Origin: a virus
Lineage: Duplodnaviria > Heunggongvirae > Uroviricota > Caudoviricetes
Direction: 5' to 3' (one strand)
IMG/VR virus record: IMGVR_UViG_2698536476_000006
DNA length: 5,496 bases
The stretch's first letter is position 1. Each line of letters begins with the position of its first letter. A program made the position numbers and the translations under genes. The notes beneath the pieces were generated by a model. The model did not search any database. It was not told where the DNA came from and saw nothing but the letters and a program-made list of their open reading frames with translations. This document shows, piece after piece, positions 1-5,496 of this stretch.

Positions 1-117
1 GATGGAAATGGTCAGGAAGGATGGCCTCCAATGGATGGTAGTGAAGGAATAAGAATTACCGATATCGATACATCAGGAATATTTGATTCAGATGATATGA
101 CTATCAAGGCCGCCTGA
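1..117 (+). CDS. 3' end of upstream early-left gene (lambda ea10-like); 5' end lies outside the window
   Basis: Frame 1 is open from the window edge to TGA at 115-117 and translates to ...DGNGQEGWPPMDGSEGIRITDIDTSGIFDSDDMTIKAA*. It sits immediately upstream of cIII, where lambda has ea10. The identification rests on position and recollection only. Confidence 0.45.
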   Translation, partial: DGNGQEGWPPMDGSEGIRITDIDTSGIFDSDDMTIKAA

Positions 118-177
118 GCGCGGCGTTACCGCATACCAATTACGCTTCACTCGAGGCGTTTTTCGTTATGTATAAAT

Positions 178-183
178 AAGGAG
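178..183 (+). promoter_or_regulatory. Shine-Dalgarno sequence of cIII
   Basis: AAGGAG lies 6 nt upstream of the cIII ATG at 190. Confidence 0.7.
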
Positions 184-189
184 CACACC

Positions 190-354
190 ATGCAATATGC
201 CATTGCAGGGTGGCCTGTTGCTGGCTGCCCTTCCGAATCTTTACTTGAACGAATCACCCGTAAATTACGTGACGGATGGAAACGCCTTATCGACATACTT
301 AATCAGCCAGGAGTCCCAAAAAATGGATCAAACAATTATGGCTATCCAGACTAA
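190..354 (+). CDS. cIII: CIII, protease (FtsH/HflB) inhibitor that stabilises CII; 54 aa
   Basis: ATG at 190 follows a strong Shine-Dalgarno AAGGAG (178-183) with 6-nt spacing. Translation [53 protein letters not shown] matches my recollection of lambda CIII. It is below the ORF-track size cutoff and in a different frame from the 197..466 track ORF. Confidence 0.92.
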   Translation: MQYAIAGWPVAGCPSESLLERITRKLRDGWKRLIDILNQPGVPKNGSNNYGYPD

Positions 355-466
355 ATTCACTATCGCCACTTTTATTGGCGATGAAAAGATGTTTCGTGAG
401 GCCGTCGACGCTTATAAAAAATGGATATTAATACTGAAACTGAGATCAAGCAAAAGCATTCACTAA
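323..466 (+). CDS. kil: Kil, host-killing / FtsZ-ring inhibitor; 47 aa
   Basis: The C-terminal 47 codons of track ORF 197..466 ([47 protein letters not shown]) start at ATG 323, preceded by AGGAG. It overlaps the 3' end of cIII out of frame and the 5' end of gam. Matches lambda Kil from memory. Confidence 0.85.
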
Positions 467-837
467 CCCCCTTTCCTGTTTTCCTAATCAGCCCGGCATT
501 TCGCGGGCGATATTTTCACAGCTATTTCAGGAGTTCGGCCATGAACGCTTATTACATTCAGGATCGTCTTGAGGCTCAGAGCTGGGCGCGTCACTACCAG
601 CAGATAGCCCGTGAAGAGAAAGAGGCAGAACTGGCAGACGACATGGAAAAAGGCCTGCCCCAGCACCTGTTTGAATCGCTATGCATCGGTCATTTGCAAC
701 GCCACGGGGCCAGCAAAAAAGCCATTACCCGTGCGTTTGATGACGATGTTGAGTTTCAGGAGCGCATGGCAGAACACATCCGGTACATGGTTGAAACCAT
801 TGCTCACCATCAGGTTGATATTGATTCAGAGGTATAA
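421..837 (+). CDS. gam: Gam, RecBCD nuclease inhibitor (138-aa annotated form; internal start at 541 gives the 98-aa form)
   Basis: The track ORF translation ([18 protein letters not shown]...[10 protein letters not shown]) matches lambda Gam. The ATG at 421 has no obvious SD, whereas the in-frame ATG at 541 ([13 protein letters not shown]...) is preceded by AGGAG (529-533), so the short form is probably the main translation product. Confidence 0.95.
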
Positions 838-842
838 AACGG

Positions 843-1628
843 ATGAGTACAGCACTCGCAACGCTGGCAGGGAAGCTGGCTGAACGTGTCGGCATGGATT
901 CTGTCGACCCACAGGAACTGATCACCACTCTTCGCCAGACGGCATTTAAAGGCGATGCCAGCGATGCGCAGTTCATCGCATTGTTGATCGTCGCCAACCA
1001 GTACGGCCTTAATCCGTGGACGAAAGAAATTTACGCCTTCCCTGATAAGCAGAACGGCATCGTTCCGGTGGTGGGCGTTGATGGCTGGTCCCGCATCATC
1101 AATGAAAACCAGCAGTTTGATGGCATGGACTTTGAGCAGGACAATGAATCCTGTACATGCCGGATTTACCGCAAGGACCGTAATCATCCGATCTGCGTTA
1201 CCGAATGGATGGATGAATGCCGCCGCGAACCATTCAAAACCCGCGAAGGCAGAGAAATCACGGGGCCGTGGCAGTCGCATCCTAAACGGATGTTACGGCA
1301 TAAAGCTATGATTCAGTGTGCCCGTCTGGCCTTCGGATTTGCTGGTATCTATGACAAGGATGAAGCCGAGCGCATTGTCGAAAATACTGCATACACTGCA
1401 GAACGCCAGCCGGAACGCGACATCACTCCGGTTAACGATGAAACCATGCAGGAGATTAACACTCTGCTAATCGCCCTGGATAAAACATGGGATGACGACT
1501 TATTGCCGCTCTGTTCCCAGATATTTCGCCGCGACATTCGCGCATCGTCAGAACTGACACAGGCCGAAGCAGTGAAAGCTCTTGGATTCCTGAAACAGAA
1601 AGCCACTGAGCAGAAGGTGGCAGCATGA
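843..1628 (+). CDS. bet: Bet (Red-beta), single-strand annealing protein; 261 aa
   Basis: Track ORF translation [66 protein letters not shown]... matches lambda Bet. It starts 5 nt after the gam stop and its stop overlaps the exo start (ATGA at 1625-1628). Confidence 0.97.
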
Positions 1629-2305
1629 CACCGGACATTATCCTGCAGCGTACCGGGATCGACGTGAGAGCTGTCGAACAGGGGGATGATGCGTGGCACA
1701 AATTACGGCTCGGCGTCATCACAGCTTCAGAAGTTCATAACGTAATAGCAAAACCCCGCTCCGGAAAAAAGTGGCCTGACATGAAAATGTCCTACTTCCA
1801 CACCCTGCTTGCTGAGGTTTGCACCGGTGTGGCTCCGGAAGTTAACGCTAAAGCGCTGGCCTGGGGAAAACAGTACGAGAACGACGCCAGAGCCCTGTTT
1901 GAGTTCACTTCCGGCGTGAATGTTACTGAATCACCGATCATCTATCGCGACGAAAGTATGCGTACCGCCTGCTCTCCAGATGGTTTATGCAGTGACGGCA
2001 ACGGCCTTGAACTGAAATGCCCGTTTACCTCCCGGGATTTCATGAAGTTCCGGCTCGGTGGTTTCGAGGCCATAAAGTCAGCTTACATGGCCCAGGTGCA
2101 GTACAGCATGTGGGTGACGCGAAAAGATGCCTGGTACTTTGCCAACTATGACCCGCGTATGAAGCGTGAAGGACTGCATTATGTCGTGGTTGAGCGGGAT
2201 GAAAAGTACATGGCGGGTTTTGACGAGATGGTGCCGGAGTTCATCGAAAAAATGGACGAGGCACTGGCTGAAATTGGTTTTGTATTTGGGGAGCAATGGC
2301 GATGA
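1625..2305 (+). CDS. exo: Exo (Red-alpha), 5'-3' dsDNA exonuclease; 226 aa
   Basis: Track ORF translation [73 protein letters not shown]... matches lambda exonuclease. Translationally coupled to bet. Confidence 0.97.
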
Positions 2306-2484
2306 AGCATCCTCACGATAATATCCGGGTAGGTGCGATCACTTTCGTCTACTCCGTTACAAAGCGAGGCTGGGTATTTCCCGACCTTTCTGTTATCCAA
2401 AATCCACTGAAAGCCCAGCGGCTGGCTGAGGAGATAAATAATAAACGAGGGGCTGTATGCACAAAGCATCTCCTGTTGAGTTAA
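2302..2484 (+). CDS. Small early-left protein, lambda orf60a-like; 60 aa (alternative start at 2296 gives 62 aa)
   Basis: ATG at 2302 overlaps the exo stop (ATGA). Translation [60 protein letters not shown]. Position and size match lambda orf60a. Confidence 0.7.
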
Positions 2485-2648
2485 GAACGAGCATTGAGAT
2501 GGCACATAGCCTTGCTCAAATTGGAGTCAGGTTTGTGCCAATACCAGTAGAAACAGACGAAGAATTTCATACGTTAGCCACATCCCTTTCACAAAAGCTG
2601 GAAATGATGGTGGCGAAAGCAGAAGCAGATGAGAGAGACCAGGTATGA
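2457..2648 (+). CDS. Small early-left protein, lambda orf63-like; 63 aa
   Basis: Track [66 protein letters not shown]. It overlaps the 3' end of the previous gene by 28 nt, as lambda orf63 overlaps orf60a. Confidence 0.7.
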   Translation: MHKASPVELRTSIEMAHSLAQIGVRFVPIPVETDEEFHTLATSLSQKLEMMVAKAEADERDQV

Positions 2649-2658
2649 CAACCACTGA

Positions 2659-2940
2659 ATGCATTTTTCTGGCAGCGGGCTTCATATTCTGTGTGCTTAT
2701 GCTTGCCGACATGGGGCTTGTTCAGTGACACCTCAGCAAGAAAACGCCCTTCGCAGCATTGCCCGTCAGGCTAATTCTGAAATCAAAAAAGCCAGACAGC
2801 AGTTTCCGGATAAAAACGTCGATGACATTTGCCGTAGCGTACTGAAGAAGCACCGCGAAACGGTAACGCTGATGGGATTCACACCGACTCATTTAAGCCT
2901 GGCGATCGGCATGTTAAACGGCGTCTTTAAGGAACGGTGA
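2659..2940 (+). CDS. Hypothetical protein; start uncertain (ATG 2659 gives 93 aa; GTG 2725 gives 71 aa)
   Basis: Track ORF ...TPQQENALRSIARQANSEIKKARQQFPDKNVDDICRSVLKKHRETVTLMGFTPTHLSLAIGMLNGVFKER. No convincing SD before 2659; a weak GGGG lies about 9 nt before the GTG at 2725. A competing 27-aa hydrophobic ORF (2645..2728) overlaps its 5' part in another frame. I could not match it to a lambda gene. Confidence 0.4.
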   Translation: MHFSGSGLHILCAYACRHGACSVTPQQENALRSIARQANSEIKKARQQFPDKNVDDICRSVLKKHRETVTLMGFTPTHLSLAIGMLNGVFKER

Positions 2941-3038
2941 GCATGAAAAGCAAAATCATCAGGGAGCTACAGGCTCCTTTTTTATTGTTCGCATTCACCC
3001 TCAAGCGTATTAACCAACAATTCAGGGATTAATGGAAG

Positions 3039-3260
3039 ATGGCAGACATCATTGATTCAGCATCAGAAATTGAAGAATTACAGCGCAACACAGCAATAAA
3101 AATGCGCCGCCTGAACCACCAGGCTATATCTGCCACTCATTGTTGTGAGTGTGGCGATCCCATAGATGAGCGAAGACGCCTGGCCGTTCAGGGTTGTCGG
3201 ACTTGTGCAAGTTGCCAGGAGGATCTGGAACTTATCAGTAAACAGAGAGGTTCGAAGTGA
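3039..3260 (+). CDS. TraR/DksA-family C4-type zinc-finger protein; 73 aa
   Basis: Translation MADIIDSASEIEELQRNTAIKMRRLNHQAISATHCCECGDPIDERRRLAVQGCRTCASCQEDLELISKQRGSK contains CxxC-(14 residues)-CxxC. Size and layout resemble F-plasmid TraR (73 aa), which has the same type of C4 motif with a slightly longer spacer. Confidence 0.75.
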   Translation: MADIIDSASEIEELQRNTAIKMRRLNHQAISATHCCECGDPIDERRRLAVQGCRTCASCQEDLELISKQRGSK

Positions 3261-3412
3261 GCGAAATTAACTAGAAGCCAAAGATAAAATCATCGCTGAG
3301 CAGGAGAAAATCGCTAACGGAGAAAAGACAGTAAGTCAGTATATGAAAACCGCATGATATCATCAGATAAAAATCGATCGTAAAGCGAAATATTAATACC
3401 AGAATAAACGAG

Positions 3413-3436
3413 TCGAGGTAAATTATATTACCTCGA
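3413..3436 (-). terminator. Candidate hairpin terminator downstream of the minus-strand membrane-protein gene
   Basis: Perfect inverted repeat TCGAGGTA (3413-3420) / TACCTCGA (3429-3436) around an AT loop. On the minus strand it is followed by CTCGTTTATT, a weak U tract. It lies 35 nt beyond the stop codon of the 3471..4073 gene. Confidence 0.35.
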
Positions 3437-3470
3437 TAAATTAACTAAAACTTGCCCGCTATATACTATC

Positions 3471-4073
3471 TCATTCAGTATCATCACGCGCGGTCTGTGC
3501 ATATGTTACTACCGCACCTAATGTATTAATTTTCTTTTCAACATAGATAATATTATCGTACTCATAATTGCCATACGGATAGCAAATGCGAATATTCTCA
3601 TGTAGATCGGGGTCATCCACCTCAGCTCCAGAACAACTTTTTGAACTACCGGAAGTATACCGATACGGTGCAACATAAGACGATGTCTCTCCAGGCAAAA
3701 AATAAGTTAGTGTTGTAAGGGGTATAATCAGAAAAAATCCAGCAAATATGCACATCCCTGCATAAACCTTAAGGTATGCTGACAGACTCTTCCAGCCGCT
3801 TTGTTTTACTATCCCCTTCTTAACCCAAAACAGAGATAACAGAAAAGCTATTCCCATGCTAAACAGAATGTAATAGTGGGATATACTCTGATTAAGAAAC
3901 GTGACCCTGTAAATATCTGCCCGCCACCAGAAGAAAAGGAAAATAAAGATCAGGCCTGAAACTGTCATGCAAATCAAATAAGGATACGAATCTTTTTTCA
4001 TGTTTAGCGTCCATAAAATTTTTCCTGCCCCGGACAAATTTACCATCCATTTTTTGCGCAGAAAATAGCTCAT
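3471..4073 (-). CDS. Hypothetical integral membrane protein (about 3 predicted TM helices plus a roughly 70-aa Cys-containing C-terminal domain); moron-like cargo gene, start codon uncertain
   Basis: The only long minus-strand ORF not shadowing a recognised gene. Hydrophobic stretches YLICMTVSGLIFIFLFFWW, HYYILFSMGIAFLLSLFWV and MCIFAGFFLIIPLTTLTYFL, followed by a polar C-terminus ...SKSCSGAEVDDPDLHENIRICYPYGNYEYDNIIYVEKKINTLGAVVTYAQTARDDTE. Candidate starts are ATG at 4073, 4046 or 4001 (MKKDSYPYL...); none has a strong SD. The gene is visibly AT-rich relative to the flanking recombination genes and antisense to the operon. Confidence 0.6.
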   Translation of the reverse strand: MSYFLRKKWMVNLSGAGKILWTLNMKKDSYPYLICMTVSGLIFIFLFFWWRADIYRVTFLNQSISHYYILFSMGIAFLLSLFWVKKGIVKQSGWKSLSAYLKVYAGMCIFAGFFLIIPLTTLTYFLPGETSSYVAPYRYTSGSSKSCSGAEVDDPDLHENIRICYPYGNYEYDNIIYVEKKINTLGAVVTYAQTARDDTE

Positions 4074-4245
4074 TACTTACTGCACAATAATACACAAAAT
4101 TGCGTAAATTTTTTGCATGGATTTTAGCTCTTTCAGCCGACGTTTAAGGGGTAAATAGCATTTCCTAAAAGCAACTGCACCAACCCAACAGAATGAGCTA
4201 CCGCTTACGTTGAGAGCAAAAAAGTGTATAGCAGCAATGAACAGC

Positions 4246-4272
4246 ATCCTCGCACTGACGAGGATTTCTTTT
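4246..4272 (+). terminator. Intrinsic (rho-independent) terminator-like hairpin
   Basis: ATCCTCG (4246-4252), loop CACTGA, CGAGGAT (4259-4265) form a perfect 7-bp stem, followed by TTCTTTT (4266-4272). Confidence 0.5.
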
Positions 4273-4315
4273 ATCTGAACTCGCTACGGCGGGTTTTGTT
4301 TTATGGAGATGATAA

Positions 4316-4483
4316 ATGCACTTCCGAGTCACAGGTGAATGGAATGGAGAACCATTCAACAGAGTTATCGAAGCAGAGAACATCAATGACTGCTATGACC
4401 ACTGGATGATATGGGCGCAGATAGCACATGCAGACATAACCAATATTCGAATTGAAGAACTGAAAGAACACCAAGCCGCCTGA
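4316..4483 (+). CDS. Hypothetical small protein, 55 aa, immediately upstream of xis
   Basis: ATG at 4316 is preceded by GGAG (4304-4307). Translation MHFRVTGEWNGEPFNRVIEAENINDCYDHWMIWAQIAHADITNIREELKEHQAA-like (55 codons). The TGA stop (4481-4483) sits in the loop of the downstream terminator hairpin. Below the ORF-track cutoff; the overlapping 61-aa track ORF 4224..4409 in another frame has no SD and is less plausible. Confidence 0.45.
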   Translation: MHFRVTGEWNGEPFNRVIEAENINDCYDHWMIWAQIAHADITNIRIEELKEHQAA

Positions 4484-4498
4484 TGGCGGCTTTTTCTT
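4473..4498 (+). terminator. Intrinsic terminator between the 55-aa ORF and xis
   Basis: GCCGCC (4475-4480), loop TGAT, GGCGGC (4485-4490), then TTTTT (4491-4495); flanking A/T could extend the stem to 8 bp. Classic GC-rich stem plus U tract. Confidence 0.6.
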
Positions 4499-4522
4499 GC
4501 GTGTAATTGCGGAGACTTTGCG

Positions 4523-4741
4523 ATGTACTTGACACTTCAGGAGTGGAACGCACGCCAGCGACGCCCAAGAAGCCTTGAAACAGTTCGTCGATGGGTGCGC
4601 GAATGCAGGATATTCCCTCCTCCGGTTAAGGATGGAAGAGAGTATCTGTTCCACGAATCAGCGGTAAAGGTTGACTTAAATCGACCAGTAACAGGTAGCC
4701 TTTTGAAGAGGATCAGAAATGGGAAGAAGGCGAAGTCATGA
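4523..4741 (+). CDS. xis: Xis, excisionase (recombination directionality factor); 72 aa
   Basis: Track ORF MYLTLQEWNARQRRPRSLETVRRWVRECRIFPPPVKDGREYLFHESAVKVDLNRPVTGSLLKRIRNGKKAKS matches lambda Xis. GGAG (4511-4514) lies 8 nt upstream. The 3' end overlaps the int start by 23 nt. Confidence 0.95.
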   Translation: MYLTLQEWNARQRRPRSLETVRRWVRECRIFPPPVKDGREYLFHESAVKVDLNRPVTGSLLKRIRNGKKAKS

Positions 4742-5337
4742 GCGCCGGGATTTACCCCCTAACCTTTATATAAGAAACAATGGATATTACTGCTACAGGG
4801 ACCCAAGGACGGGTAAAGAGTTTGGTTTAGGCCGAGACAGGAGGATAGCAATCACTGAAGCAATACAGGCCAATATTGAGTTATTTTCAGGACACAAACA
4901 CAAGCCTCTGACAGCGAGAATCAACAGTGATAATTCTGTTACGTTACATTCATGGCTTGATCGCTACGAAAAAATCCTCGCCAGCAGAGGAATCAAGCAG
5001 AAGACACTCATAAATTACATGAGCAAAATTAAAGCAATAAGGAGGGGGCTGCCTGATGCTCCACTTGAAGACATCACCACAAAAGAAATTGCGGCAATGC
5101 TCAATGGATACATAGACGAGGGCAAGGCGGCGTCAGCCAAGTTAATCAGATCAACACTGAGCGATGCATTCCGAGAGGCAATAGCTGAAGGCCATATAAC
5201 AACAAACCCGGTCGCTGCCACTCGCGCAGCAAAATCAGAGGTAAGGAGATCAAGACTTACGGCTGACGAATACCTGAAAATTTATCAAGCAGCAGAATCA
5301 TCACCATGTTGGCTCAGACTTGCAATGGAACTGGCTG
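4719..5337 (+). pseudogene. int: Integrase (lambda Int, tyrosine recombinase) interrupted at codon 207 by an IS insertion; only the N-terminal arm-binding and core-binding portion is contiguous
   Basis: From ATG 4719 the translation MGRRRSHERRDLPPNLYIRNNGYYCYRDPRTGKEFGLGRDRRIAITEAIQANIELFSGHKHKPLTARINSDNSVTLHSWLDRYEKILASRGIKQKTLINYMSKIKAIRRGLPDAPLEDITTKEIAAMLNGYIDEGKAASAKLIRSTLSDAFREAIAEGHITTN.VAATRAAKSEVRRSRLTADEYLKIYQAAESSPCWLRLAMELA matches lambda Int residues 1-206. From about 5338 the sequence becomes the IS terminal repeat, and the expected VTGQR(212)VGDL is absent. Confidence 0.9.
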
Positions 5338-5496
5338 TGAACCGCCCCGGGTTTCCTGGAGAGTGTTTTATCTGTGAACTCAGGCTGCCAGATCATCGTT
5401 TCCGATGGAAGCATAATAAGCTTTTTCTGCTTCTGCCGGGGGAGTATGGCCCAGCCTTTCCAGCAATCGTCGATTGTTATACCAGTCCACCCACGT
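5338..5496 (-). mobile_element. Terminal 159 bp of an IS3-family insertion sequence (IS629/IS1203-like), transposase on the minus strand; element continues beyond the window
   Basis: The sequence starts with TGAACCGCCCCGGG, which I recall as the IS629-type terminal inverted repeat. The reverse complement encodes the C-terminus of an IS3-family OrfB transposase. The boundary is ambiguous by 1-2 bp because of shared bases with int. Confidence 0.85.
5380..5496 (-). CDS. 3' end (last 38 codons) of IS3-family transposase OrfB; 5' part outside the window
   Basis: The reverse complement of 5380..5496 reads TWVDWYNNRRLLERLGHTPPAEAEKAYYASIGNDDLAA*, a typical C-terminal tail of IS3/IS629-group DDE transposases, with the stop codon 41 nt inside the IS end. 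Confidence 0.8.
   Translation of the reverse strand, partial: TWVDWYNNRRLLERLGHTPPAEAEKAYYASIGNDDLAA

Follow-up and report, generated by a model that had tools for sequence, protein, structure and literature searches.

A lambda-family prophage has its integrase gene broken at codon 207 by the end of an IS629-type element

The stretch of DNA analysed here, called the window in what follows, is 5,496 nucleotides long and comes from the virus record IMGVR_UViG_2698536476_000006. The list of its open reading frames, together with Pfam searches, showed that the window is the recombination and left-arm segment of a lambda-family prophage. It contains gam (421-837, PF06064), bet (843-1628, RecT family) and exo (1625-2305, YqaJ domain), several small lambda-type ORFs, an ORF with a TraR/DksA zinc finger, and xis (4523-4741, plus strand). 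The 72-residue Xis matched PF07825 (Exc) with 139 bits over residues 1-72, and its relatives are annotated as excisionase (WP_001303849). The three Red genes and xis are all intact. The ATG of the integrase gene int, at 4719, overlaps the end of xis with its stop codon, as in lambda, the two reading frames sharing 23 bp. A stretch of low GC content was noted at 3200-4400 (36-41%, against 45-54% elsewhere in the window). Inside it lies a minus-strand ORF of 200 codons (3471-4073), whose product has long hydrophobic runs; Pfam returned no match for it, and the only match was to phrog_1416, a family of unknown function, over the C-terminal 88 residues. This ORF looks like a cargo gene of the moron type, placed upstream of xis. 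We observed also a strong terminator-like hairpin at 4473-4510 (AAGCCGCC-TGAT-GGCGGCTT, then a T-run), which stands at the end of a 55-residue ORF (4316-4483) and directly upstream of a TTGCN6TTGC repeat. This repeat (TTGCGTGTAATTGC, 4497-4510, plus strand), read from the sequence, is intact and located just upstream of xis.

Two prophages, those of E. coli O111:H2 12A and UTAK-6, were 100.0% identical to positions 1-5338 of the window, and in each of them int is intact, with 356 residues; phage 434 was 99.1% identical over the same positions. In the chromosomal relatives the intact 356-codon int is followed by ybhC, in the lambda attachment region, and intact copies of the int of the window were present in several O157 genomes as well.

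The 5' fragment of int is located on the plus strand at 4719-5337, with codons 1-206 and the first two bases of codon 207, and the translation of 4719-5339 reads MGRRR...CWLRLAMELAV. The DNA of this fragment is 100% identical to the intact int of NZ_CP077479 up to 5338. The 356-residue Int of the nearest relative aligned from end to end with the lambda integrase chains of PDB 5J0N and 1Z1G, and since this alignment has no gaps, the residue numbering of lambda Int applies directly. Over residues 1-206 the numbering of the window sequence is identical to that of the lambda chains and a single substitution, H164P, separates the two. The proline codon, at 5208-5210 of the window, is found also in the intact Int of O111:H2 12A. 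The original prediction had Int reading cleanly through residue 206; the comparison with lambda Int bore this out, except that the identity reaches one residue further, to Val207, which is kept as GTG. Thus residues 1-207 match lambda integrase bar H164P, and the overlap of the start with xis is likewise shared.

Pfam searches showed that the arm-binding domain (PF09003, 114 bits, residues 1-69) and the core-binding, SAM-like domain (PF22022/PF02899, residues 81-171) are present in the fragment. The catalytic domain PF00589, which covers residues 179-345 of the intact relative, had no Pfam match in the 207-residue fragment. NCBIfam gave no family match for the same 207 residues, and the identification is founded on DNA identity, Pfam and PDB. 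When the domain boundaries of PDB entries 1KJK (1-64), 2OXO (74-176) and 1AE9 (177-355) were placed on the Int of the intact relative, the remnant in the window was found to retain two whole DNA-binding domains, one for the arm sites (1-64) and one for the core (74-176), together with 31 residues of the catalytic domain. Lambda integrase keeps its catalytic domain, whereas the frame of the window leaves int after residue 207 and runs from residue 208 on through 52 residues encoded by an insertion sequence. The residues Arg212, Lys235, His308, Arg311, His333 and Tyr342 are all absent from this frame, as had been predicted. The locus is therefore an int pseudogene and not a functional member of the lambda Int-type tyrosine recombinases.

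Megablast alignments to intact int genes stopped at position 939 of the query, which corresponds to 5338 of the window. The intact gene reads ...GAA CTG GCT GTT GTT ACC GGG CAG CGA... at this place, and the window reads ...GAA CTG GCT GTG AAC CGC CCC GGG.... The T at 5338 is common to int (GTT) and to the IS terminus (TGAACC); because this base fits both partners, the true junction lies at 5337/5338, inside codon 207, which by coincidence still codes for valine, GTG replacing GTT. Arg212 would fall five codons past the break, so that the lambda numbering and the end of the alignments agree with the position at which the gene had been predicted to be split. A frameshift or a sequencing error was ruled out as an explanation, for the downstream DNA has no relation to int and matches an IS exactly.

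IS629, an IS3-family element of 1310 bp, was first described in Shigella sonnei and is the dominant IS of EHEC O157, O26, O103 and O111. Members of the IS3 family have terminal inverted repeats of about 25-40 bp, with 5'-TG at the start and CA-3' at the end, encode an orfA/orfB DDE transposase through a -1 programmed frameshift and leave target-site duplications of 3-4 bp. The predominance of IS629 in EHEC has been described (PMC5567499), and gene inactivation and genomic deletions in O157 are reported to be due to it (PMC9943667). The last 159 bp of the window (5338-5496, minus strand) correspond to the right end (IRR) of such an element, which is cut by the window end and whose transposase is antisense to int. 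IS3-family copies that match positions 5339-5496 at 158 of 158 nt (E = 2e-76) are spread over many chromosomes and plasmids of E. coli. Of the 5,426 complete E. coli genomes, 4,113 carry related copies, in a median of 3 and up to 50 places per genome. The terminus at 5338 starts TGAACCGCCCCGGG... and belongs to a terminal inverted repeat of about 25 bp (5338-5362, TGAACCGCCCCGGGTTTCCTGGAGA), which is imperfect, with 23 matches out of 25 between the two ends of the full copy of strain E203449. This single end fits both an IS3-type terminus, with its 5'-TG start, and the IRR of full copies. On the minus strand, 5380-5496 encode the last 38 codons and the stop codon (5380-5382) of the transposase gene orfB, the antisense frame ending in ...TWVDWYNNRRLLERLGHTPPAEAEKAYYASIGNDDLAA at the OrfB C-terminus. 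The switch at 5338 into the end of an IS629-like element and the antisense transposase tail, both called in the original prediction, were thus recovered, and the resemblance of the 159-bp tail to the IS3 family goes far beyond chance.

E. coli O103:H2 12009 carries a full copy (locus L005, 1600-2909, 1310 bp) that agrees with the tail of the window in all of its first 159 bp. This copy is flanked by a 3-bp duplication, TAC, is annotated with the programmed frameshift, and showed 98.5% identity over 1310 bp to the element annotated as IS629 in phage BP-4795 (AJ556162). Its orfB, which PGAP places 42 bp from the IS end, scored 309.7 bits on NCBIfam NF033516 (IS3 family, cut-off 160), while NCBIfam had no family match for the 38-residue OrfB fragment of the window alone. 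The window shares with IS629 the terminal repeat and the antisense OrfB C-terminus at the same 42-bp offset, and contains just 12% of the element; for the 159 bp visible, these nucleotide comparisons support an assignment as IS629-like, IS3 family. The isoform matches the copies of O103:H2 type and differs at 3 of 159 tail positions from the variant of E203449. Between full copies, the O103:H2-type and the E203449 variant differ at 51 of 1310 positions, i.e. they are about 4% divergent.

IS629-type repeats are multicopy and often break short-read assemblies, and the window ends inside one of them. The contig might thus have been mis-joined, or have ended, at a repeated IS, with the int of the strain being intact. 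We consider such an artefact extremely improbable, because int gives way to the IS precisely where the terminal inverted repeat begins; a random chimera would join at an arbitrary place inside shared sequence. The same TGAACCGCCCCGGG terminus adjoins unrelated DNA at three other loci, in E203449, UTAK-14 and O103:H2 12009, which argues that it is a genuine transposition end and not an arbitrary assembly join. Int and the IS share no sequence at the join but the one T, and a break at the IS terminus is what transposition would give.

The int of E203449 (NZ_CM128603.1, 3356106-3358489; locus L001, 6320-8703) is the same gene and was found to contain a 1310-bp IS629-type insertion in the same orientation, 115 bp further downstream, at about codon 245. 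It is flanked by a 3-bp duplication, AAC, and after the IS come the rest of int and then ybhC. PGAP annotates the region as a 'phage integrase Arm DNA-binding domain-containing protein, missing C-terminus', an IS3 transposase, an integrase 'missing N-terminus' and ybhC. The gene, the type of IS and its orientation are the same as in the window, but the site and the IS variant differ, so that the two insertions are independent events. In UTAK-14 (NZ_CP168998.1), IS629-type copies are located in the kil-gam spacer and in exo (locus L003, 3469-4778 and about 6070-7368); this strain and similar O103:H2 strains carry near-identical prophages (99.9%) with int intact and the two IS629-type copies within about 7 kb. 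These relatives show one type of prophage being inactivated at different genes in different lineages.

Taken with the break itself, the precedent of E203449 favours a simple insertion, since there the same int was hit by the same type of IS and the rest of int follows. We give a probability of about 0.8 to the reading that an IS629-type insertion in a lambda-type int made the gene a pseudogene, with simple insertion as the likeliest layout. An IS629-type copy (IS3 family, 1310 bp) would have transposed into the int of a lambda-family prophage of the type that sits, in close relatives, at the lambda attB site beside ybhC. The insertion would separate base 2 from base 3 of codon 207 and place the transposase gene on the strand opposite to int, and the resulting frame would encode the arm-type and core-binding domains, 31 catalytic residues and 52 meaningless IS codons before a TGA. 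Beyond the window we would expect the IS to be complete, followed by a predicted 3-bp duplication, CTG, and by codons 207-356 of int (TTGTTACCGGGCAGCG..., TTGTTACCGGGCAG...), so that the 3' half of the gene probably still exists.

The IS end might instead be a junction left by an IS629-mediated adjacent deletion, by an IEE-associated deletion or by recombination between two IS629 copies, in which case int codons 207-356, possibly with attR and flanking genes, would have been lost or moved and would not follow 1.3 kb downstream. With just 159 bp of the IS inside the window, there is room for this explanation; the O103:H2-like relatives have two more IS629-type copies in a span of about 7 kb, which would be substrates for recombination, and IS629-linked deletions are reported for O157 (PMC9943667). 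The right junction expected of a simple insertion, with a duplication of 0-8 bp allowed, had 0 matches in the genome and metagenome contig collections. This absence is uninformative, however, as those collections lack the left junction as well. In the sole fully sequenced comparable case, E203449, the IS inserted simply, leaving a 3-bp duplication and the remainder of int in place. A deletion or rearrangement was judged unlikely, yet a real alternative.

As for the left junction, a 100-bp query across it was searched in the 5,426 complete E. coli genomes, with the best place reported for each record; the junction was absent and the sole match was E203449. This match is made of two pieces 115 bp apart, hence a different insertion site, and E203449 was rejected as a carrier of the same allele. 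O103:H2-like genomes 'covering 100%' of the window were rejected likewise, their int being intact and the IS part coming from the kil-gam and exo copies. The junction was absent also from phage records, and an exact 35-mer across it had 0 matches in collections of species-representative genomes, viral sequences and metagenome contigs. The insertion site thus appears to be unrecorded in the public sequence searched. Comparator copies of the element showed 3-bp duplications that differ from each other, AAC in E203449 and TAC in O103:H2 12009.

With simple insertion as the preferred reading, the consequences for the prophage can be considered. We infer that its own int is unable to catalyse Int-dependent excision or reintegration and that the prophage is locked in place, because the active-site residues are absent and the role of these residues in tyrosine recombinases is well established. 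A lambda-specificity Int supplied in trans, or removal of the IS, could lift this block. Excision of IS3-family elements promoted by IEE restores disrupted genes in STEC, as with lacZ::IS600 in O121:H19 (PMC9397093). It would nevertheless be very unlikely, in our judgement, that the int::IS629 allele is anything beyond dead DNA, be it a reversible switch by which IEE-promoted excision would repair int in a subpopulation and re-mobilise the prophage, or a decoy made of Int(1-207) and directed against phages that use the lambda att sites.

Disruption of prophage integrases by IS elements is an already known kind of prophage decay, and the present one is a textbook case that opens no long-standing question. 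In E. coli O157 Sakai, disrupted integrases are among the reported defects of prophages Sp3, Sp11 and Sp12 (Asadulghani et al. 2009, PMC2669165); these are, like the prophage of the window, lambdoid prophages fixed by the loss of Int in IS629-rich genomes. With the window, IS629 is seen once more to ground a lambdoid prophage of pathogenic E. coli, and two separate IS hits in one int, with the IS629 hits in relatives, illustrate how fast prophages are domesticated. For annotation, the label 'Arm DNA-binding domain protein' is less apt for this locus than that of an int pseudogene interrupted by IS629, and the prophage is to be scored as probably excision-defective.

The frame that starts at the int ATG gives a predicted read-through ORF (4719-5496, plus strand) of 259 residues, made of 207 Int residues and 52 IS-encoded residues. 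Joining the window in silico to full IS copies showed that the 52 codons encode NRPGFPGECFICELRLPDHRFRWKHNKLFLLLPGEYGPAFPAIVDCYTSPPT (NRPGFPGECF...CYTSPPT) and are followed by a TGA, the first base of which is at 5496 and the remaining two beyond the window. The TTGCN6TTGC repeat upstream of xis presumably corresponds to the motif that cII recognises at the lambda pI promoter, and this promoter would drive expression of the truncated int. A scan for the sigma-70 consensus found no promoter-like site, which fits an activator-dependent promoter without proving one. Since xis and this motif, a putative cII box, are intact, transcription of the truncated int is plausible.

Such a product could in principle be functional. 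Expressed as a fusion, Int(1-207) would bind arm or core sites and act as a competitor of, or dominant-negative against, the Int of incoming or co-resident lambda-specificity phages, or would modulate recombination at the att sites in some other manner. Isolated N-terminal and core-binding fragments of lambda Int bind their DNA sites in vitro, and in the window both DNA-binding domains are complete, while xis and the TTGCN6TTGC motif are intact. Against this, no sign of selection was seen, the allele was found nowhere else in the searches, the 52-residue tail is a generic one carried by more than 1000 unrelated truncated genes, and the product would end in a stray part of the catalytic domain and meaningless residues, without the C-terminal tail that is used in protomer contacts. 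The truncated protein may moreover be unstable. We regard a functional truncated Int as most improbable, and its role as a competitor as speculation; an int inactivated by simple insertion remains the preferred reading.

An exact look-up of the predicted 259-residue product in protein collections returned no record. Among public gene calls, a HMMER search with 112 residues around the junction recovered the 52-residue tail on over 1000 truncated proteins of unrelated kinds, and none of these matches contained the lambda Int part. The top match, P0001, was not the junction of the window but an internally duplicated IS read-through. The truncated genes that bear the tail include fimD, a sugar transporter and a P4-type integrase, and some products keep the name of the parent, e.g. 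'outer membrane usher protein FimD' or 'integrase'. The tail is therefore a generic by-product of IS629 insertions, which makes the peptide a handy marker of IS629-truncated genes as well as a source of misannotation. One of the matches, P0054 (132 residues), is another integrase lost to this IS: it is of the P4 type, with the PF13356 arm-binding domain, and is truncated near residue 80 by this end of IS629, with the same read-through tail attached.
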